Origin: Candidatus Binatus sp.
Lineage (GTDB): Bacteria; Desulfobacterota; Binatia; Binatales; Binataceae
Length of the DNA stretch: 64,000 bases
Direction: 5' to 3'
Assembly (NCBI RefSeq): GCF_030646925.1
Contig: NZ_JAUSKL010000124.1
Coordinates: 48,298 to 112,297 of the forward strand
The notes beneath the pieces are model-generated. The model did not search any database. It was not told where the DNA came from and saw only the letters and a list, made by a program, of their open reading frames with translations. How positions within the stretch are numbered: position 1 is the first letter of the stretch; every line of letters begins with the position of its first letter. This document shows, in pieces, positions 7,122 to 17,474 of the stretch. A program made the translations under genes and the position numbers.

Positions 7122-7667
7122 ATGCCGGGAGCACGGAAGCCGCGCGATCCCGCACTGCTCGACGCACTCGATGCCCTCGATAGAGTTCATTATGCCGGCG
7201 AAGCTTGGCGGGTTGTGCGCGACGGCCGGGATCCTCTGCAGGGAAATGCTTCCGGCGGACGCTGGGATCCCACGTTGTTTGACGTACTCTACACCTCCCT
7301 GGATCCGGATGGAGCCGTTGCAGAAGTTCACTTTCACCTGTCACGTCAGCCGGTCTTTCCGTCGAGGATCAGCTACCGACTGCATCGCATCAAAGTCAGG
7401 ACCGCGAAGACTCTCAGCCTTCCGGATTTAGACGCGATGGTTCCGCTTGGCGTCGATCCGGCCCGATACCGCGCGATCCTCTACGAGCCCACTCAGGCAA
7501 TCGGCGACGCCGCTTACTTCCTCGGTTTCGACAGTATCATCGCCCCGAATGCTCGCTGGTCATGCGACAACTTGATCGTATTCACCGATCAGCTCGCGCC
7601 CGCCGAGCTGGAAGTCATCGAGTCGACGGAAGTCAATTGGACCAAATGGCGGAAGAAGCTGAACTGA
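7122..7667 (+). CDS. RES-domain toxin (MbcT/ParT-like NAD-targeting toxin family)
   Basis: Conserved R (GGRWDP), E (AVAEVHFHL) and S (IIAPNARWS) positions of the RES domain; 181 aa. Confidence 0.8.
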   Translation: MPGARKPRDPALLDALDALDRVHYAGEAWRVVRDGRDPLQGNASGGRWDPTLFDVLYTSLDPDGAVAEVHFHLSRQPVFPSRISYRLHRIKVRTAKTLSLPDLDAMVPLGVDPARYRAILYEPTQAIGDAAYFLGFDSIIAPNARWSCDNLIVFTDQLAPAELEVIESTEVNWTKWRKKLN

Positions 7668-8198: not shown

Positions 8199-9122
8199 AT
8201 GAAAATACTGGTGATGGGCGCCGGCGCGGTCGGCTCGTACTTCGGCGCGCGCCTGCAAGCCGCGGGCGAAGACGTGGTGCTATGCGCGCGGGGCCAGCAT
8301 CTCGAGGCGATTCGCGAGCGAGGCCTCGACATCGCGAGTCCTCGCGGCGATCTTAAAATTCCCGTCACCGCGACCGCCAAGCCCGCGGAGTGCGCGCCGT
8401 ACGATCTGATTATTTTCAGCGTGAAGGGTTATGACACTGACGCAGCGGCTGAATTGATCCAGGGATGCATCAAGCCGGGCGGCGCGATTCTCACGATCCA
8501 GAACGGCGTCGAAAATGAAGCGCGCCTCGCCGCGATTTTCGGCGCCGACGCCGTGATGGGTGGTAACGCGCGCGTCGGCGTCGAGATGGTTGCGCCCGGC
8601 AAAATCGTTCACTTCAGCACGGGCCATATCGATTTCGGCGAACTCGACGGCCGCGAGAGCGATCGCGCGCTTAAAATCGCCGACGCGTTTCGGCGCGCCG
8701 GCATCCTCGGCCAGCTATCTGCCGATCTCAAGACGCTGCGCTGGGACAAGTTGATTTGGAACGGCTCGCTGAATACAATCGCGACGCTGACGCGGCGGCG
8801 GGTCTGCGAACTGCTCGACGATCCTGAAAGTATGCGGCTGCTGCGCACGCTGATGACGGAAATCGCCGCCGTCGGACGCGCCGAGGGCGCAAAGCTCGGC
8901 GATGATCGCGTCGAGGCTTACATCGCGCATTCGCAGAAAAATCTGCGCGCGCTCAAAACCTCGACCCAGCAGGACCTCGAGCACGGCAAGCCGCTCGAAT
9001 ACGACGAGCTGAGCGGCGCCGTAGTGCGAGCGGCGCGCCGGCATCGAATCGATGTGCCGGCCAACGAGACTATTTACGCCCTGCTGCGATTGCTCGACGG
9101 CGCGTCGCGCTCGATTTCCTAG
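8199..9122 (+). CDS. panE: 2-dehydropantoate 2-reductase (ketopantoate reductase)
   Basis: MKILVMGAGAVGSYFGARL Rossmann N-terminus and ApbA/PanE C-terminal domain. Confidence 0.85.
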   Translation: MKILVMGAGAVGSYFGARLQAAGEDVVLCARGQHLEAIRERGLDIASPRGDLKIPVTATAKPAECAPYDLIIFSVKGYDTDAAAELIQGCIKPGGAILTIQNGVENEARLAAIFGADAVMGGNARVGVEMVAPGKIVHFSTGHIDFGELDGRESDRALKIADAFRRAGILGQLSADLKTLRWDKLIWNGSLNTIATLTRRRVCELLDDPESMRLLRTLMTEIAAVGRAEGAKLGDDRVEAYIAHSQKNLRALKTSTQQDLEHGKPLEYDELSGAVVRAARRHRIDVPANETIYALLRLLDGASRSIS

Positions 9123-9968: not shown

Positions 9969-11097
9969 TTAAGTCGGCATCGTATCGGCGTCACCTTTGC
10001 GCACGCCCATCAGGTACGCCTCGATAAAATCATCGATCGCGCCGTCCAGCACCGCATCCGTGTTGCCGATCTCGACGCCGGTGCGATGGTCCTTCACCAT
10101 CCGATACGGCTGCAGCACGTACGATCGAATCTGGCTGCCCCACGCGATGTCTTTCTTGTCCTTGCTGAACTTCTCGAGTTCTTCCTTTTTCTTGCGCTGC
10201 TCAAGCTCGAACAAACGTGCGCGCAAAATCTTCATCGCCATCGCGCGATTCTTATGCTGCGAGCGCTCGTTCTGGCACGTCACCACGATGCCGCTCGGGA
10301 GGTGCGTGAAGCGCACCGCCGAGTCAGTCTTGTTAACGTGTTGTCCACCCGCCCCCGACGCGCGAAACGTATCGATCCGCAAATCAGCCGGATTGATGAT
10401 GATTTCGATCGTGTCGTCCACCGCTGGAAAAACGAACACCGACGCAAACGACGTATGCCGCCGCGCGTTGGCGTCGAAGGGCGAGATTCGCACCAGCCGA
10501 TGAATCCCGGCCTCGGCCTTGAGATAGCCGTACGCGAAATCTCCTTCCACCGTCACAGTCGCACTCTTGATTCCCGCGCCGTCGCCGGGTTGCAGGTCCG
10601 CGATTTCGGTGCTGAAGCCGCGGCGCTCGGCCCATCGCAGGTAGAGCCGCAGCAGCATCTCGGCCCAATCCTGCGCCTCCATGCCGCCGGCGCCGGGATG
10701 GATCGATACGATCGCGCCGAGCCGATCGTGCTCGCCGCTCAGCATCAGGCGTAGTTCCTGACGCTCGAGCTCGATGCGCGACGCGTCGAGCGCCGACGCG
10801 GTTTCGCGCGCGGCTTCGGAGTCGTCGGCGCCCTCTTCCTCCGCCATCTGGAGAAACACCCGCGCCTCGTCGAGCTTGTCGCGCAGCATCTTGTAGCCCG
10901 TGAGCTGCGCGCGCAGTTGTTCCTGCTCTTTCAGCGACGCCTGCGCTTTTTCGCGGTCGTCCCAGAAATCCTGTTTGGCGGATTGTTCGACGAGCTGGGT
11001 CTGGCGGGTGGTCAGTGCGGGGACGTCAAAGACGCCTCCCGAGCTTATCGGCGCGATCATCGAACTCGGCAAGCTGCTGCTTCATGTCGCTGAGCAT
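9969..11097 (-). CDS. prfB: peptide chain release factor 2 with programmed +1 frameshift (join 11097..11029 and 11027..9969)
   Basis: Frame-0 ORF from ATG at 11097 (MLSDMKQQLAEFDDRADKLGRRL) ends at CTT TGA C preceded by GGGAGG; +1 frame continues DVPALTT...; GGQ motif (SGAGGQHVNKT) and SPF motif downstream. Confidence 0.9.
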
Positions 11098-11198
11098 TGG
11101 AAATTTCACCTCACCTCGCGCCGGGATTAATCGGCGCCTGAGGATTCATTGTGACACAAGCGCGCGCTCCGATTAATGGGGCCTGGCTCCGCTCCTTT

Positions 11199-12383
11199 TT
11201 ACTTCGGGATTGGCTTTTGCAAAATGACGAGCACGTTTTTCCCTCGTTGCGGCACGCGTTGTCTTCCAACAAGCCCCTGCAACCGCACCTTTCCGGCGCT
11301 TATCCAATCACGAATCCAGTCTTTGAGGTCACTTTCCCAGACCATCGGTACCGATGTTGTTATTTGCCAAAGAATGTCGTGCGGAACGCGGCCTTTCTCA
11401 GCCAGCTCAGCTTCGACTTTTGCCAGTCCGATCTCGATAAATCGTTGCCGCAACGAATCGTAATAATCCGAATCGTTCATAACACCGGCGGAAAACAGTT
11501 CCCTATTTGCACTGCGATCGATTCGCCTGCGCTGACGCGCCGCAGCTCGAGCTGATTCCATTGCCTGCATGGCCATCTTTTCCGATTCCTTGAAGACTGC
11601 CATACCCTCCGGGTGGCGCGTTGCGCAGATCAAATGGAAATGGGTTCGATTGATCTCGGGATGCAATACAATAGCGCTACTAACAAAATCGAAACCGCCA
11701 ACGCGCTTTACGTTCTCGGAATAGAGTCTGACCGCCTCCTCATCGCGATCCACGCCGGTCAAACCTTCCAACCCCTTCCGGTAGGTTTCTGAACCAAACA
11801 GCGCTGTGAAGCTGTCCTGTGTATCTTTTTGAGGAGAATCCAAAAAACGGCGTATGTGACCGGTCATGAAGTTAATCAAAACTTCAACTGGATGAAGCTT
11901 CAAGATCGGTTCGATCGTGTTCATTGCGAAGCCCGTCCAGCCTGTCGGATCGATAAATACAAACGGAAAGGATCCTGACCCGCCATCCCTCACGAAGCTG
12001 AGAATCTCCCCGACGGCTCCCTCGAGTTCTCCGTTCAGCGTTTTGACGTCGATATCCGAAATGCTTGCGGTAAATTTCTGGAGTTGTTCGTACGCTCCTG
12101 GATCTCTTTCGAGGAAGAAGCAACGCAATCGTAACACGTGTCCGCGCTTCAGTTGCGTTGCTCGAGCCTTTCTCAATTCTTCCAAAGCGATTGAGAAGGA
12201 GCTATCGCTTAGCTTGCTCGATTGCACATTCCAAGGGCCGGCGAAACAGTCTATGTAGGTTATGCAAGCCCACTTAGACCCAACCTTGTGAGCAAAGCGC
12301 TCAAGGTACTTTCGAAGAATGAGATGCTTTACAAGGGTTTGTTCCCGACCAATGTATAGATCTTCCTCGCTCAAATTCCCCAC
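11199..12383 (-). CDS. three-Cys-motif partner protein TcmP-like (partner of Gp37/Gp68-family protein)
   Basis: 394-aa protein with YIDCFAGPW and FVFIDPTGW motifs; adjacency to DUF5131 protein matches the TcmP context; lower GC. Confidence 0.55.
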   Translation of the reverse strand: MGNLSEEDLYIGREQTLVKHLILRKYLERFAHKVGSKWACITYIDCFAGPWNVQSSKLSDSSFSIALEELRKARATQLKRGHVLRLRCFFLERDPGAYEQLQKFTASISDIDVKTLNGELEGAVGEILSFVRDGGSGSFPFVFIDPTGWTGFAMNTIEPILKLHPVEVLINFMTGHIRRFLDSPQKDTQDSFTALFGSETYRKGLEGLTGVDRDEEAVRLYSENVKRVGGFDFVSSAIVLHPEINRTHFHLICATRHPEGMAVFKESEKMAMQAMESARAAARQRRRIDRSANRELFSAGVMNDSDYYDSLRQRFIEIGLAKVEAELAEKGRVPHDILWQITTSVPMVWESDLKDWIRDWISAGKVRLQGLVGRQRVPQRGKNVLVILQKPIPK

Positions 12384-12429
12384 CTTTGAATCGCAATGGT
12401 TTTTATCGTTCTAGGTGACAGGAAGTTAT

Positions 12430-13182
12430 CTAATTTGGGTTCTTCCACTTGTGCGTCGTGGGAAACTCCCCATAAGTCTTTCCACGCAGCCGGCGTCCAG
12501 TCTCATGCTTTCGCACGCCGCCCCATTGCTTGAAAAAGAATGGAACACCGAACTGTCGACATTGACCTAAAAGAGATAGAACCCACTTCTCTTCCATAGG
12601 CCTTGCCTTCGGTCCGCTCTCGCCACCGACAATCACCCAGTCGATTCCGCTAAGGTCGAGCGTGCCGAGATCTTCCAGCAGAGGCTCTACCGAAAGAAAT
12701 CTGACGCAAGCAGGAGTCTCCAATAGAGCCTTAATCCGAGGCAAGCCGTATTTTCGATCTTCAACGCTCACTCCGAACCAAACATTTGGTAACTCTCCCA
12801 ACCAAGCGAGTGGCCCTGAAATGAGCTCCTTCATTCTCGTGTGGCGCTTCGTAAGAACTTGGTAGACATGCCAATTCGCCTCTTCCATGACGCGGCCGAC
12901 ATCCCCTATGTAGCTAATCGGCACGCCTTCTTGGAAGAGATCACTCATCGAGTTTACAAATATCATACGCGGAGTTAGCCACCTCAAAGGCTCGCGCAAC
13001 TTTTCTGGTACAAGTCGCAGATCAAAGCCCTGTTCGAAGGGATGTCCCCTCACCCCGCGGAACCGCTGGGCAAATCGCTCGGCGTAGCAGTTCTTGCATC
13101 CTGGACTTACTTTCACGCACCCTCTAATCGGATTCCAGGTAGCATCCGTCCATTCGATGGTACTCTTGACGCTCATTGTCAA
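12430..13182 (-). CDS. phage Gp37/Gp68-family protein (DUF5131) with three-Cys motif
   Basis: N-terminal TIEWTDATWNPIRGCVKVSPGCKNCYA (Cys-x6-Cys-x2-Cys) characteristic of the family; 250 aa. Confidence 0.65.
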   Translation of the reverse strand: MTMSVKSTIEWTDATWNPIRGCVKVSPGCKNCYAERFAQRFRGVRGHPFEQGFDLRLVPEKLREPLRWLTPRMIFVNSMSDLFQEGVPISYIGDVGRVMEEANWHVYQVLTKRHTRMKELISGPLAWLGELPNVWFGVSVEDRKYGLPRIKALLETPACVRFLSVEPLLEDLGTLDLSGIDWVIVGGESGPKARPMEEKWVLSLLGQCRQFGVPFFFKQWGGVRKHETGRRLRGKTYGEFPTTHKWKNPN

Positions 13183-13388
13183 ACCCTCGAGCGAAACTTA
13201 GGCGAAACTGGTCTGAAGTTCAACCGCCATTTCGCGAGCAGGCGGCTGCTGACGTTGATGCACCTGCACGCACATGACAATTTTCGCCGCAATAATGAGA
13301 GGTCACATTCCGTCGCGAGGCCCCGATTAATGGGGTGTCCGCCCGCCCGCCGGTGCGCCTGTATATCTGGGCGGCGCGAAATGCCGAG

Positions 13389-13420
13389 TGGCTCCCCGGG
13401 CCGGATTCGAACCAGCGACA
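13389..13420. repeat. 32-nt direct copy of the 3' end of tRNA-Asn (att-like island boundary)
   Basis: tggctccccgggccggattcgaaccagcgaca identical to 17399-17430. Confidence 0.8.
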
Positions 13421-13439
13421 CTCGAATACAGATCACAGA

Positions 13440-13784
13440 TTAGATCGTGATGAATGCTTCCAGTTTGGCGCGCACGAGTTGCGCGATTGCCTGCGGGACC
13501 TTCGCACCGGCATATCGGATTGGTCGCGCCATCGTATCGATGCTGCAGATGTGACTGGTAAGGATCTCACCCGAAATCGGTAACCCGGGTGGTAGAACGA
13601 CGCTGGTGGGAAATGGCCGAACACGAGACGTGATCGGGCAAACAAACGCCAATCCCGTGTTTTCGGCGAACAATGCTGACGAGACGACCAGCGCGGGCCG
13701 CCTGCCGGCCTGCTCCCTGCCTCGAGTCGGATCGAAATCGGTCCAAACCAGATCGCCGGCGCCCGGCACGTAGTTTCGCGCCAT
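13440..13784 (-). CDS. mazF: MazF/PemK-family type II toxin (mRNA interferase)
   Basis: MARNYVPGAGDLVWTDFDPTRGREQAGRRPALVVS... PemK/MazF fold signature; start overlaps antitoxin stop. Confidence 0.75.
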   Translation of the reverse strand: MARNYVPGAGDLVWTDFDPTRGREQAGRRPALVVSSALFAENTGLAFVCPITSRVRPFPTSVVLPPGLPISGEILTSHICSIDTMARPIRYAGAKVPQAIAQLVRAKLEAFITI

Positions 13785-14044
13785 TACTCCTCGACGACCT
13801 CGCGCCCGCGATCGGCCCCCCACTCGAATGCAGAGGAATAAGCCGCCCGCCACTGCTTAGGACTCTTCCCCCTGAAAAGCCCTTCCAATGTGAAAGACGG
13901 CGCAGCGCGACGGACAACGATATTGCCGTCCTGGGTCTCAACCTCGACGCGTTCACCGCCGCTGAGCCCGGCGCTCCTTGCGACCTCTGCGGGAAGCCTG
14001 ACTGCGAGGCTCTTGCCCCATTTTCCAACTGTTGCACGTGACAT
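13784..14044 (-). CDS. mazE: MazE/AbrB-type antitoxin (SpoVT-AbrB domain)
   Basis: MSRATVGKWGKSLAVRLPAEVARSAGL... swapped-hairpin AbrB-like N-terminus; directly upstream of mazF. Confidence 0.65.
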   Translation of the reverse strand: MSRATVGKWGKSLAVRLPAEVARSAGLSGGERVEVETQDGNIVVRRAAPSFTLEGLFRGKSPKQWRAAYSSAFEWGADRGREVVEE

Positions 14045-14215
14045 ACGGCGCTTTCCACACCCCTGAGATATTCTCAGGATATCATCGCGGGCGAGCCTTT
14101 TCAAACGAGCGAATACCGGGATGTGGCGGATGGCCAAGCGCAGGCCGTCAAAAAAGACGCCACCCGATCTCGTCGGGGCAATTTAATGGGCGGTCCGGCG
14201 AGCCGCAGATGCTGG

Positions 14216-15736
14216 CTATCTGGGATCGAATGCCGCAGCCAGATCGCGATTTCCTCCTTGGGCCGCCCGTTCTTGTTCGAGCCTGGCCAGGCGCGCTTCG
14301 AGACGTGCGATCTTCTCAACCTGCCGGCGCAGTTGTTCTATCTGCGCTGCTTGCTCCTTGTTCTTCCTGGTTTCTTTCTGTAGTTCGTTCAGCAGCATCG
14401 AGGTAAGCATCGAGTAGCGCACCGACTGGACCTTGCCATCGTCATCGTGGACCACCAGTTCCGGATAGACACGATAGACTTCCTCGGCCACCAGCCCATA
14501 CTGCTTGATAGCTTGCGGATCGTCCTTGTAGCGGAATGTCACTGGATGCAGCTTCATCAGACCTTCGGTCGAGTCTCCCTTATCGTTAATGTCGCGCTTG
14601 TAGCGAGCAGACGAGATCACTACTCCGAGCTTGCCGCTGCCATTAACTACAACATCGCTGCCTGTTACCGCCGTGCCCGCGATGCCCGCAATAAAAGTCT
14701 GCGTCTGCGTGCCCTGTAATCCGATTCGTATAGTCCCGGTGTCAGTCGAAAGACCCAAGCTCGCGATGTGGATGTTGTTCTTACCGGTGGTCAGGTTGAA
14801 GCCCGCCTGGAACCCGAGCGCGGCATTGGTTTGGCCGGTAGTGTTGTTAAACAGCGCCTGCAGTCCCACAGCCGTGTTGAAGCTGCCGGTTGTGTTCTTA
14901 AGCAGAGCTTGCGCTCCGTCGGCCGTGTTCTGCACGGCGGTGGTGTTGCTAAAGAGAGCCTTCGCGCCGGTGGCCGTGTTGTTGTTGCCCGAGGTGTTAT
15001 TGAACAGCGCCGACGACCCGCCCGCGGTGTTGCTGACGCCGATCGTGTTCGATGTCAGCGCCGAGTCTCCGCTGGCGGTGTTGAGGTTACCGGTAGTGTT
15101 GCTTCGGAGCGCGCTCGCGCCGTCAGCGGCATTGTTGCCGCCCGTGGTGTTGTTAAACAGCGCAAACGCGCCGGTCGCAGTGTTGCTGACTCCCGTCGTG
15201 TTTAATATCAGCGCCGAGGCTCCGTCAGCGGTATTGAAGATACCGGTAGTATTGAATCTCAGCGCCTGGGATCCGGTCCCGGTGTTGCTCGCACCCGAGG
15301 TGTTGAACTGCAAGGCGTCCAGCCCGGTCGCGGTATTGTCGGAACCGGTCGTGTTAGTTCGAAGGCTGTTGAGCCCGGTGGCAGAATTGCCGCCTCCAGT
15401 GGTGTTGGCCGCCAGCGCGCGGCGGCCGATGGCGGTGTTGGCGCCGCCGGAGGTGTTGGAGCTAAGCGCGGATTCGCCCGTAGCCGTGTTGTTGTTGCCG
15501 CCAACATTTCCCTTGAGGGCGCTCGCTCCACAGGCGGTATTGCCACCGCCGGTGGTATCGGCATTGAGGGCGTTGAATCCGAGCGCAGTGTTGTTGGTGC
15601 CCGTGGTGACGCTCGCCAAGGCGCCGCTTCCCAATTTGGTGTTGCTCTGGGCCAGCACGACAGCGGGGCTTGAGATCGCCGCCGCCAACACGACGATGAG
15701 GGTAGCAACGAAACGCAAACTTGAGTTCTTCATCAC
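14216..15736 (-). CDS. secreted repeat protein with C-terminal peptidase S74 / tail-fibre intramolecular chaperone domain and coiled-coil
   Basis: Signal peptide, ~25 tandem 14-15 aa repeats (NTTGxxNTAxGxxAL), then IASLG..ARYKRDI..LHPVTFRYK..GLVAEEVYRVYPELV chaperone-of-endosialidase motif, then heptad-like C-terminus. Confidence 0.7.
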   Translation of the reverse strand: MMKNSSLRFVATLIVVLAAAISSPAVVLAQSNTKLGSGALASVTTGTNNTALGFNALNADTTGGGNTACGASALKGNVGGNNNTATGESALSSNTSGGANTAIGRRALAANTTGGGNSATGLNSLRTNTTGSDNTATGLDALQFNTSGASNTGTGSQALRFNTTGIFNTADGASALILNTTGVSNTATGAFALFNNTTGGNNAADGASALRSNTTGNLNTASGDSALTSNTIGVSNTAGGSSALFNNTSGNNNTATGAKALFSNTTAVQNTADGAQALLKNTTGSFNTAVGLQALFNNTTGQTNAALGFQAGFNLTTGKNNIHIASLGLSTDTGTIRIGLQGTQTQTFIAGIAGTAVTGSDVVVNGSGKLGVVISSARYKRDINDKGDSTEGLMKLHPVTFRYKDDPQAIKQYGLVAEEVYRVYPELVVHDDDGKVQSVRYSMLTSMLLNELQKETRKNKEQAAQIEQLRRQVEKIARLEARLARLEQERAAQGGNRDLAAAFDPR

Positions 15737-16426
15737 GTTCTCTCCTCCAGAGCGCTCCAGTAGCGGCTGCTCCCCGAGCGCGATCGCCGATACCTCGCCG
15801 CCCTCGGGTAGATGCTAGGCTGTCCCTAGGATGTGGTATGCCCCAAGCGAGGGGGTTAGAGCAAGGGAGCAGCCGGAAGCTGAAACTCGCCGAGGCCGTC
15901 GCCGACGACGCACCTGCGTGGGCATAACGCCGAGGTAGAAAATCAGGATTGCGCTGCCGCTGATCTGGCGACCTGCTGACGCGCTACTTCCGCTCGAATG
16001 CGGCCGCCAGATCGCGATCTTCGTTCTTCGACAGCGTCGCGCGCTCGCAAGAGCTAAGCGCCACCCGGTTATCGGCCGGCCTTCGGTCCGCCATTTCGAA
16101 ATTAGGTGGTGCGCCCGGCTCTGCGCCTCACGACGAAGGGGCCAGGGAAGTTGATCGAGTCTGACCTCACGGTGTCGGTAAGGGTCTAATTTCTCGATAC
16201 GGCGGCCTCGTTGTCGGCGAAATTCCATTCCGAAATATTATTGGACTAGAATGCGGAAAACTGAAGCTAAGCGAATCACGCGTTCTTCGACGCTACCACA
16301 TCCTTGTTTCACCACCGAGTCCACTTTGACGCCAAATCCGCCGAAGGGGTTCTTGCACGGGAAGCGAGTGCTAATCTCAAGTTTGAGACCGAGCCCGCCG
16401 AGCTGCGCGAGATAGGAGTTAGCCAC

Positions 16427-17134
16427 ATGAAAAAGCTTTTTGCTGTGCTGCTGCTAGGAGTCGGCGCACTTCTCCACGCCCCTTCGCACGCAGCCGAAAT
16501 ACGATCTCAGCGGGAGTCGAGTCCGTACGCTTCCAGTGCTTCTGGAAGCCAGCGATACTCAATCCCACCGTCGAAGCAAACTCTGGAAATTCCGACCATC
16601 GAAGTTCCGGCTGCTCTCGAACTTCCGCCTGTCGTAGTCGGTTGCTGGCACGGAGAAGATGTCTTGGATGACGTGACGGTGGTGCTCGGAGACCACGGAG
16701 CTGATTCCTATACCTCCACCATCTACACCCTATGCTATCGCAAACGCGGCGACGGCCCCTATGAACTCTCCCTCGCTACCGCCACCGCCGGTTCCACCAA
16801 CCCGTGGGCGGGGCTCGGAGGCTTCTTGCTGGCCTCCCGAATCGCGGCGGTAGAGGCGCAGTTTTCGGACGAAAAACTGGAACTTGTGCCCGAAGACGAG
16901 CCGACTCGGTTTCGATTGCACATTAGTTTTCGCATGACCACTCACCTGTCTCTGTTCGGGATGTACGTTGGTCAGAGCAGTTACAATTGTGATGAATTGA
17001 TGTACTGCCAAGTCCGCTCCCCCTCCTCCGTCTACTGCCAAAGCGCAGGCACCACCGAACGCGATGACGGAACTTGGAAGGTGCTGGGCCACGGTCATGT
17101 CGAATTGACTCGGCTGGCCAACCAAGCTTCATGA
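16427..17134 (+). CDS. secreted hypothetical protein
   Basis: Signal peptide MKKLFAVLLLGVGALLHAPSHAAE; GGAG RBS; no family recognised. Confidence 0.5.
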   Translation: MKKLFAVLLLGVGALLHAPSHAAEIRSQRESSPYASSASGSQRYSIPPSKQTLEIPTIEVPAALELPPVVVGCWHGEDVLDDVTVVLGDHGADSYTSTIYTLCYRKRGDGPYELSLATATAGSTNPWAGLGGFLLASRIAAVEAQFSDEKLELVPEDEPTRFRLHISFRMTTHLSLFGMYVGQSSYNCDELMYCQVRSPSSVYCQSAGTTERDDGTWKVLGHGHVELTRLANQAS

Positions 17135-17398
17135 GAAACGGTGGGGCGTCGAGCAAACCGGTTAACCTCCCCTGTCCCACAGTCGGCTTGACGCCAAGCC
17201 TTCTAATACTGGATATCAGCCGACAGATCAGAGTGCCGCGCATCCTGCCCCGTTGGCCCATCCATGAGATTGAGAAGGCGGCGTGCAGCGGGCGTCTTGT
17301 CTTGGGGGACCCCACCAAAGTCCCCACAGTTGGCAAGTGACAGTAAGCCCGTTCTGAACTGAGGGGCCAAATGATCTTCGCCAATGCTAGAGTTTTAG

Positions 17399-17474
17399 TG
17401 GCTCCCCGGGCCGGATTCGAACCAGCGACATGACGGTTAACAGCCGTCCGCTCTACCGACTGAGCTACCGGGGA
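17399..17474 (-). tRNA. tRNA-Asn (anticodon GTT)
   Basis: rc reads TCCCCGG TA GCTC AGTCGGTA GAGC G GACGG CTGTTAA CCGTC ATGTC GCTGG TTCGAAT CCGGC CCGGGGA G CCA. Confidence 0.9.

Follow-up and report, generated by a model that had tools for sequence, protein, structure and literature searches.

How did two genes of low GC content come to lie just upstream of prfB in Candidatus Binatus, and what might they do there? We analysed them within a 64,000-nt stretch of contig NZ_JAUSKL010000124.1 (hereafter the window), for which a first-pass annotation had described two co-oriented open reading frames of the DUF5131 and TcmP families. Both were found at that place on the minus strand, and together they form a two-gene cassette of about 2.1–2.15 kb. 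The gene names themselves were already known, as NCBI names both genes DUF5131 and TcmP in a Candidatus Binatus metagenome-assembled genome. New here are the two predicted folds, the obligate adjacency of the genes, a 16-nt repeat that brackets them, their absence from all 35 closest relatives, and an lnt-prfB spacer shared with other insertions.

A foreign cassette upstream of prfB

The features of the locus are as follows.

11166..11181, minus strand: 16-nt direct repeat, prfB-proximal copy (minus-strand CCCCATTAATCGGAGC), the native motif in the conserved prfB upstream region
11199..12383, minus strand: tcmP, three-Cys-motif partner protein, 394 aa
12384..12429, minus strand: DUF5131-tcmP intergenic spacer, 46 nt, with Shine-Dalgarno AGGTGGGG
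12430..13176, minus strand: DUF5131 / phage Gp37-Gp68 family gene, 248 aa, NCBI start at the ATG at 13176
13177..13319, minus strand: non-coding cassette leader; its GAGG Shine-Dalgarno lies about 8 nt ahead of the 13176 ATG
13320..13335, minus strand: 16-nt direct repeat, distal copy (minus-strand CCCCATTAATCGGGGC), a duplicate of the native motif upstream of prfB
13387..13420, minus strand: att-like copy of a tRNA-Asn 3' end, outside the cassette, a perfect 34-nt match

The DUF5131 frame can also be read from an alternative TTG (12430..13182, 250 aa), and an alternative TTG start for tcmP at 12374 agrees with the family consensus. Neither sigma-70 promoters nor terminators turned up when the cassette and its surroundings were scanned for consensus sequences, and Rfam gave no RNA family there.

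GC content was 0.513 in the cassette, compared with 0.604 in the whole window and 0.618 in prfB, and GC at third codon positions was 0.55–0.57 against 0.75–0.79 in the flanking genes. The low GC reported earlier (about 50%) thus held, whereas the figure of about 65% for the flanks was too high, the measured composition of the window and prfB placing it near 60%. An independent Logan assembly (L001) was collinear with the window from 13416 to 7119 at 99.94% identity, and the cassette is therefore not an assembly artefact. The cassette is foreign, horizontally acquired and self-contained.

Insertion boundaries and the neighbouring tRNA-Asn islet

The two copies of the bracketing repeat are 15/16 identical, a match that none of 300 shuffles equalled. 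In Binatus relatives the motif is present once, about 100 nt upstream of prfB, and it is doubled only around insertions. Homology to relatives stops at the edge of the prfB-proximal copy; position 11182, given earlier as the start of the cassette, is exactly where it ends. Weaker similarity extends beyond the 16-nt repeat over about 45 nt, and the cassette carries a degenerate copy of the prfB upstream region. The sequence CCCCATTAATCGG may be a recombinase site. Only the window and loci L023, L036 and L005 had flanking repeats; a search for a general insertion signature gave no significant flanking repeats in L002–L004 or L085.

The first-pass placement of the pair, between prfB and a tRNA-Asn att-like repeat and beside toxin-antitoxin modules, was borne out, with MazEF at 13440–14137 and a RES toxin at 7122–7664. 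The att-like repeat is real, a perfect 34-nt match, and its source tRNA-Asn gene lies at 17399–17474 on the minus strand. It is the far end of a separate islet of about 4 kb (13421–17396). We considered whether the cassette was cargo of a tRNA-Asn island and rejected this: the cassette falls beyond the att-bounded islet, and a 16-nt repeat of its own flanks it.

A hot spot between lnt and prfB

The pair was missing from all 35 of the closest relatives, while four further Binataceae carried divergent copies or remnants in this same spacer between lnt and prfB; in L058 the pair has decayed. The spacer is a hot spot that also gathers HicAB and other small modules, and it offers a tidy case of a hot spot between core genes where small modules, selfish or defensive, gather. 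The pair is unlikely to have been passed down vertically within Binataceae: TcmP identity is 64% between the window and L177 and 58% between the window and L085, against 89% and 78% for the flanking PrfB in these two comparisons, and each DUF5131 has closer relatives elsewhere. It had been allowed that the two might prove to be ubiquitous core genes with conserved synteny. The pair is not core, being absent from 35 of 35 closest relatives, although insertion at the same site does recur, in a few Binataceae and as divergent copies.

DUF5131 has a predicted radical-SAM fold

DUF5131 matched PF07505 over the full profile (positions 1–243 of 243; 318.3 bits against a gathering threshold of 28.9, E 4e-95), and TcmP matched TIGR04474 at 148.1 bits against a cut-off of 53, so that both family assignments of the first-pass annotation passed. 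The third model it had named, TIGR04471 (rSAM_mob_pairA, radical SAM mobile pair protein A), was the wrong one for DUF5131, which reached 76.6 bits where the cut-off is 355 (E 2e-21). By this score, DUF5131 is a relative rather than a member, and it thus resembles a curated radical-SAM family in sequence.

The quoted motifs, GCVKVSPGCKNCYA in DUF5131 and YIDCFAGPW and FVFIDPTGW in TcmP, were all found in the sequence. Near the N-terminus of DUF5131 lies C20-x6-C27-x2-C30, with all three cysteines invariant among 39 homologues. As had been claimed, this CX6CX2C spacing is not the canonical radical-SAM CX3CX2C; the family is nevertheless placed in the radical SAM superfamily, in RadicalSAM.org Megacluster-5-2, in a subgroup beside spore photoproduct lyase (PMC9477430). 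No PDB chain matched DUF5131 in sequence. Structure prediction, which the earlier annotation had proposed for both proteins, gave a partial TIM-barrel radical-SAM fold with spore photoproduct lyase as its closest match. Spore photoproduct lyase and the SplB-like proteins of the PA0069/Rv2578c family carry CX3CX2C, whereas DUF5131 of the window has the longer spacing, is about 100 residues shorter, and bears no sign of a photoproduct-repair role.

TcmP has a predicted methyltransferase fold

TcmP is predicted to adopt a class I SAM-methyltransferase (Rossmann-like) fold followed by a helical linker and a basic, winged-helix-like C-terminal domain. The window protein belongs to a subfamily of about 385 aa, whose C-terminal 130 or so residues extend beyond the 263-position TIGR04474 model; this region has a pI of 10.1, and DUF5131 and TcmP are both basic. 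A phage TcmP homologue bears PF22560 (GMT-wHTH). Scanning 43 TcmPs against Pfam at E up to 10 gave just scattered weak matches to Methyltransf_25, Cons_hypoth95 and GMT-wHTH.

The best structural matches of TcmP were the RNA methyltransferases RlmJ, Trm1, CmoA and TrmR, with RlmJ, the 23S rRNA m6A2030 methyltransferase, the closest. The invariant residues of TcmP (K19-H20, D45..G49, E92, N117 and D145-P-x-G-W149) match topologically those of RlmJ (K18-H19, motif I, E118, D143 and D164-PPY; PMC3814359), as judged by the order of the motifs and by secondary-structure prediction rather than by superposition. Of these, D45..G49, E92 and N117 occupy positions at which a class I methyltransferase would carry its cofactor-binding residues, namely motif I and an acidic residue after strand 2. 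Motif IV of TcmP, with invariant D145-P146-x-G148-W149, departs from the D-P-P-Y/F of RlmJ (PMC3814359). Since RlmJ and the m6A DNA methyltransferases have DPPY where TcmP has DPTGW, methyl transfer by TcmP is not assured. TcmP also lacks the inserted helical subdomain of RlmJ and adds the linker and C-terminal domain. Sequence homology with RlmJ, or with any protein of solved structure, was rejected: hhalign gave a probability of 0.6% for RlmJ, there was no Pfam hit or PDB match, and the similarity is at the level of the fold only.

A mobile module that may act on nucleic acid

We propose, with confidence about evenly balanced, that the pair is a mobile two-gene module acting on nucleic acid, in which DUF5131 would be the conserved catalytic engine and TcmP the variable specificity subunit, and which likely serves in genetic conflict. 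DUF5131 would be a radical-SAM enzyme of the spore-photoproduct-lyase-like branch, in which C-x6-C-x2-C would hold a [4Fe-4S] cluster and S-adenosylmethionine would be split by this cluster to give a 5'-deoxyadenosyl radical. TcmP, as the obligatory partner with a SAM-methyltransferase fold and an active-site layout like that of amino-methyltransferases, would form a complex with it and bind the nucleic-acid target, presenting a base that it might also methylate and on which DUF5131 would next perform the radical step. The role would most likely be genetic conflict, as phage defence or as the marking of DNA or RNA. The analysis itself establishes the family and fold of each protein, their obligate adjacency, the foreign origin of the cassette and where exactly it was inserted; that a cluster is bound, SAM cleaved and a complex formed, that the substrate is nucleic acid, and that the role is defence are inferences. 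The cassette contains no effector besides the radical-SAM enzyme.

DUF5131 might instead be a viperin-like antiviral small-molecule synthase that turns a nucleotide into a chain-terminating analogue, a conversion that TcmP would modify or regulate, but we consider this very improbable. The partner is obligatory and combines a methyltransferase fold with a winged-helix-like domain, both proteins are basic, a nucleotide kinase or the like is absent, and the family groups with the spore photoproduct lyase / SplB-like clade, not with viperins.

Pairing and distribution

DUF5131 and TcmP are obligately adjacent. In 58 of 58 metagenomic TcmP loci DUF5131 adjoined TcmP, co-directionally in 55 and divergently in 3. 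The two genes usually overlap by 4 nt in these loci, against the 46-nt spacer in the window. TcmP formed 2,232 clusters at 50% identity, from bacteria, archaea, plasmids and actinophages. Where DUF5131 was 71–79% identical to that of the window, the partner TcmP-like proteins were just 24–64% identical. Partners can also change: on a haloarchaeal plasmid TcmP was partnered with SplB-like radical-SAM genes, and in actinophages DUF5131 directly followed DNA methyltransferases of the C5 (Bakery) or N6/N4 type (prophiGD53-3). Gordonia phage Easley carries DUF5131 with a TcmP-like partner between its integrase and immunity repressor. We rejected the idea that the pair is phage-borne, as 2.9 million viral contigs gave only 12 distant relatives (≤34% identity) and there were 9 Gordonia phage records.

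A spore-photoproduct-lyase-related engine with interchangeable methyltransferase-fold partners (TcmP variants, and the phage C5 and N6/N4 enzymes) might tentatively be read as a novel means of targeting nucleic acid, in which the partners would guide the engine to its target for a new hypermodification of DNA or RNA or for radical-mediated restriction of foreign DNA. An unlikely reading is that of a restriction-modification-like or addiction module, with DUF5131 as a toxic radical damager of unprotected DNA and TcmP as a protective methyltransferase, so that cells which lose the cassette would die and incoming foreign DNA would come under attack. The pair does follow the logic of a methyltransferase with a second enzyme, and phage DUF5131 is coupled to exchangeable methyltransferases in Bakery, prophiGD53-3 and Easley. 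Like type II restriction-modification and toxin-antitoxin modules, it is compact, self-contained and sporadic; stand-alone 2-kb DUF5131-TcmP modules sit between unrelated core genes, and HicAB modules occupy the same insertion hot spot. DUF5131 was broken beside an intact TcmP in L004 and on a P. aeruginosa plasmid, the order of loss tolerated in restriction-modification, although disrupted copies are few and the set is biased, the loci having been chosen by TcmP. On the other side, type II systems have a variable target-recognition region and a nuclease, and DUF5131-TcmP has neither (Pfam/NCBIfam; 43 TcmPs). No hypervariable or gapped segment interrupts the 43 TcmPs, whose C-terminal helix is among their most conserved parts, and DUF5131 is 70–86% identical across phyla, unlike fast-evolving restriction enzymes.

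Genomic context and relation to defence candidates

The first-pass annotation had called for a neighbourhood analysis of the pair in relation to defence islands. Some restriction-modification and TIR neighbours were present, but a strong association with defence islands was not seen, as most of the 127 neighbouring ORFs at 23 long-flank loci were housekeeping genes. Defence-type Pfam neighbours among the 127 numbered 2 TIR, 2 HSDR_N and 1 N6_Mtase, as raw counts uncorrected for background, and PADLOC run on the neighbours of the 23 loci returned hits to type I restriction-modification and four to mad2. One locus was embedded in a type I restriction-modification operon, and on an Agrobacterium plasmid the pair lay among GIY-YIG, patatin, DUF3800 and toxin-antitoxin genes. 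With housekeeping genes beside most loci, the neighbourhood lends weak support to defence, and a defence role for the pair, though plausible, is unproven.

Such neighbours would suit an accessory pair that modifies host rRNA or tRNA, a physiological function spread horizontally and not a conflict system. The structural matches of TcmP to RNA methyltransferases point the same way, as do its uniform conservation, which suggests one conserved target, and the position of the cassette beside prfB with a degenerate copy of the prfB upstream region. We nevertheless regard this as quite improbable, given the patchy distribution (35 of 35 closest relatives without the pair, and the decay in L058), the foreign composition, and copies of the pair that are carried by plasmids, lie in prophage immunity regions or are set within a restriction-modification operon.

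The DUF5131-TcmP pair is widespread and catalogued as a defence candidate. Full-text literature searches found no functional study of DUF5131, TcmP, Gp37/Gp68, PF07505, TIGR04474 or GMT-wHTH, in agreement with the earlier statement that no biochemical function is established. The suggestion that the pair is a candidate anti-phage or DNA-modification system was likewise sound and is already its published status: PADLOC lists PDC-M30 and PDC-M41 among 145 candidates from 'guilt-by-embedding' that the source describes as untested (Payne et al., bioRxiv 10.1101/2024.01.29.577857), and for these two we found no later phage-protection test in the literature. The 'Ophion' radical-SAM defence system, with three genes, is unrelated. 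If the proposed radical modification of, or attack on, nucleic acid is true, it would bring new enzymology to restriction-modification-like immunity and phage DNA modification. The window provides a clean and minimal unit of 2.15 kb, with native boundaries, that could be cloned, and natural comparisons exist in empty sites, divergent same-site alleles, one decayed copy, and copies with only DUF5131 broken.

The window pair differs in nothing essential from the 'three-Cys-motif' pair of TIGR04474 TcmP and PF07505 DUF5131 at NCBI, and PDC-M30/M41 consist of the same two proteins. Their 'B' family, FAM_00989, is DUF5131, shared by M30B and M41B and matched by the window protein at about 1e-99; their 'A' families are TcmP variants, to which the window TcmP matched weakly (M30A 48 bits, E 2e-13; M41A 2e-8). 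Unlike PDC-M30/M41, the window copy stands alone by prfB and is not embedded in restriction-modification or BREX. The source table writes these candidates A>>B, whereas the order in the window is DUF5131 then TcmP.

A foreign gene pair upstream of prfB

The first-pass annotation had proposed two co-oriented genes of markedly low GC near prfB, belonging to the Gp37/Gp68 (DUF5131) and TcmP families. Both were found as minus-strand open reading frames, and every motif it quoted was located in the cassette sequence.

12430..13182, minus strand: DUF5131 ORF, 250 aa (248 aa from the NCBI start, ATG at 13176)
11199..12383, minus strand: TcmP ORF, 394 aa

The DUF5131 protein was a full-length PF07505 member by profile match (E 4e-95) and TcmP passed TIGR04474 (148 bits; cut-off 53). 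The suggested check against TIGR04471 failed: the DUF5131 protein scored 76.6 bits against a cut-off of 355 and is only a distant relative of that model. Both proteins have 100% identical counterparts in NCBI, where they come from a Candidatus Binatus MAG, and an independent assembly (L001) reproduced the region at 99.94% identity. By composition the cassette is foreign: its GC was 0.513 versus 0.604 in the window, and its third-position GC 0.55–0.57 versus 0.75–0.79 for prfB and for the GST gene. The observation stands and its families were named correctly; the pair is an additional member of an uncharacterised family, already annotated by NCBI and already on a defence-candidate list.

Homology with relatives ended at window position 11181, the edge of a motif, CCCCATTAATCGG, that is single-copy in the genus, on the upstream side of prfB at a distance of ~100 nt. 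The window has it twice, at 11166–11181 and 13320–13335, on either side of 2,154 bp. In 300 shuffles no match as good arose, and weaker similarity around the repeat spanned ~45 nt. The same native element was also duplicated around other cargo in two comparison loci, L036 (an HD-domain gene) and L023. No recombinase was found in the cassette. Since lnt was absent from the entire window (1–64000) and no synteny with relatives was seen in the window past 11181, a larger rearrangement or island must lie upstream, between prfB and the gene that was ancestrally next to it.

The motif belongs to a conserved element upstream of prfB (window 11120–11181 and relatives' loci L008–L042), with CATAAT 17 nt later; this is probably the prfB promoter region. 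The prfB gene itself (9969–11097, minus strand) has a classical programmed +1 frameshift site, CTT TGA C, with GGGAGG before it, and its translation really begins at the ATG at 11097, which is not in the frame of the long ORF.

The lnt–prfB spacer across Binataceae

Among 80 prfB loci fetched from Binataceae species genomes, the ancestral order was lnt, a spacer of ~70–200 nt, then prfB. Where PrfB was ≥89% identical (35 loci), the pair was always missing, and 30 of these loci showed the empty site. The spacer held divergent DUF5131–TcmP pairs in three other genomes and a remnant in a fourth.

L177, a Binatus genome: pair; PrfB 89% identical, TcmP only 64%
L085: pair; TcmP 58% identical
L056: partial TcmP at the contig edge
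L058: decayed DUF5131 remnant

Closer relatives of each spacer DUF5131 were found elsewhere. Together with the divergent pairs and the remnant, this means that the spacer is a hot spot between core genes, where gain or replacement of the pair, and its loss, have recurred. This recurrent hot spot and the base-exact insertion boundaries are new here.

Other spacer cargo comprised HicA/HicB, an HD-domain gene, secreted proteins and an IS630 transposase accompanied by a gene for a protein of >1,000 aa (L023, L036, L053, L062, L063, L065, L071, L074, L087). A second variable spot was the prfB–GST spacer, the GST gene lying 0.1–6.3 kb after prfB in relatives (L008–L038) and only 25 nt from it in the window.

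Fold and family of the two proteins

The cysteine motif of DUF5131 had been described as different from the canonical radical-SAM motif. That holds, but the protein does not stand outside the radical-SAM superfamily: it matched a curated radical-SAM family (E 2e-21), RadicalSAM.org, in which DUF5131 is subgroup Megacluster-5-2, puts it beside spore photoproduct lyase (PMC9477430), and C20, C27, C30, a fourth cysteine (C206), GGESG and NSMSD were invariant across 39 homologues (70–86% identical across phyla).

The predicted TcmP model was confident (pLDDT 89.6) and had three parts, including two long helices and a small basic C-terminal helix-helix-strand-strand domain (pI 10.1); a phage TcmP-like protein has Pfam GMT-wHTH at the matching C-terminal position. 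With motif order and the predicted secondary structure as guides, the TcmP invariants K19-H20, D45-x-F-x-G49, E92, N117 and D145-P-x-G-W149 would map to the topological positions of K18-H19, motif I, E118, D143 and D164-PPY in the 23S rRNA methyltransferase RlmJ, the roles of which are established (PMC3814359). No sequence-level homology between the two was detected (hhalign probability 0.6%). Motif IV also differs (D164-PPY in RlmJ, D145-P-x-G-W149 in TcmP), so TcmP is best called methyltransferase-like. PDB and Pfam searches with TcmP gave no match.

Pairing and partner exchange

Of the metagenomic TcmP loci that extended 800 nt or more upstream, 58/58 had an adjacent DUF5131 (55 co-directional, 3 divergent), the usual gene overlap being 4 nt; the pair forms a unit. 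Beside DUF5131 proteins 71–79% identical to that of the window were TcmP-like partners only 24–64% identical; the partnership is asymmetric. On a haloarchaeal plasmid TcmP was preceded by SplB-like radical-SAM genes instead of DUF5131, and in actinophages a C5 or N6/N4 DNA methyltransferase came first, with DUF5131 directly after. The overall picture is of a conserved radical enzyme with exchangeable methyltransferase-fold partners, an engine-and-adaptor pattern that is new here, and so are the folds assigned to both proteins.

Methyltransferase swapping beside DUF5131, and DUF5131-only pseudogenes in comparison locus L004 and on a Pseudomonas plasmid, support a rival reading, a restriction-modification-like addiction module. 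However, TcmP lacks a variable specificity region, no hypervariable or gapped region being present within the window's TcmP subfamily, and we consider such a module unlikely.

At L175/L176 (2040–8070), a DUF5131 sharing 71% identity with that of the window lay between two unannotated ~370-aa proteins, the upstream one TcmP-like (24% identity). The region is prophage-like with many transposases, and a Peptidase_S24 repressor and DUF4145 come immediately before the locus.

Genomic context and proposed mechanism

The PADLOC phage-defence candidates PDC-M30 and PDC-M41, which are candidates only, comprise the same protein pair, with one B family common to two A families. In a Verrucomicrobiota genome (L005) the pair was embedded in a type I restriction-modification operon. 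On either side of it stood a direct repeat of the hsdM 5' end, 111 nt long with 81% identity (9012–9122, 11196–11306); a 60-aa HsdM_N fragment was left upstream. Gordonia phage Easley carried the pair between integrase and immunity repressor, a typical actinophage site for prophage-expressed defence genes, and an Agrobacterium plasmid carried it among GIY-YIG, patatin, DUF3800 and toxin-antitoxin genes. For S. meliloti, a TcmP gene and the defence gene hna are assigned to one putative transcriptional unit, and the two are co-regulated (PMC12445080). These contexts point to genetic conflict. Against a strong defence claim, housekeeping genes were the neighbours at most long-flank loci and the window's subfamily was rare on viral contigs.

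The best explanation overall, in which our confidence is evenly balanced, is TcmP-guided radical chemistry of DUF5131 on nucleic acid. TcmP would bind the target through its winged-helix-like and methyltransferase domains and present a base, perhaps methylating it, on which DUF5131 would perform SAM-derived radical chemistry; the outcome could be defence, or a mark on DNA or RNA. Family and fold are the near-certain parts of this reading; the chemistry and biological role are tentative, being rather more probably wrong than right. That the pair is instead an accessory RNA-modification system acting on host RNA seems quite improbable, and a viperin-like nucleotide-analogue synthase more improbable still, at the far end of what we would entertain. 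Proof that the pair performs radical-SAM chemistry on nucleic acid would make it far more interesting.

On a conjugative plasmid of P. aeruginosa (L091, 5959–9497), TcmP was accompanied by a truncated/frameshifted DUF5131 and by another, divergent protein of 444 aa that is also annotated TcmP; DUF6094 and a DEAD/DEAH helicase lay upstream of them.

Other features near the cassette

The neighbours were as the first-pass annotation described them: prfB, MazEF, a RES toxin and a tRNA-Asn repeat copy.

13387-13420 and 17397-17474: perfect 34-nt direct copy of the tRNA-Asn 3' end, bounding a ~4-kb islet
14216-15736, minus strand: 506-aa protein
7122-7664, plus strand: RES-domain toxin gene (PF08808, E 2e-20), 3.5 kb from the cassette

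The islet (13421–17396) looks like an island remnant, because no integrase was identified in it; its cargo was a MazE/MazF pair and the 506-aa protein. This protein consists of some twelve repeats of 51 nt (17 aa) in which N/T/G/A are abundant. Its C-terminal Peptidase_S74 'chaperone of endosialidase' domain makes it resemble a phage tail fibre, but no other phage genes were found near it.
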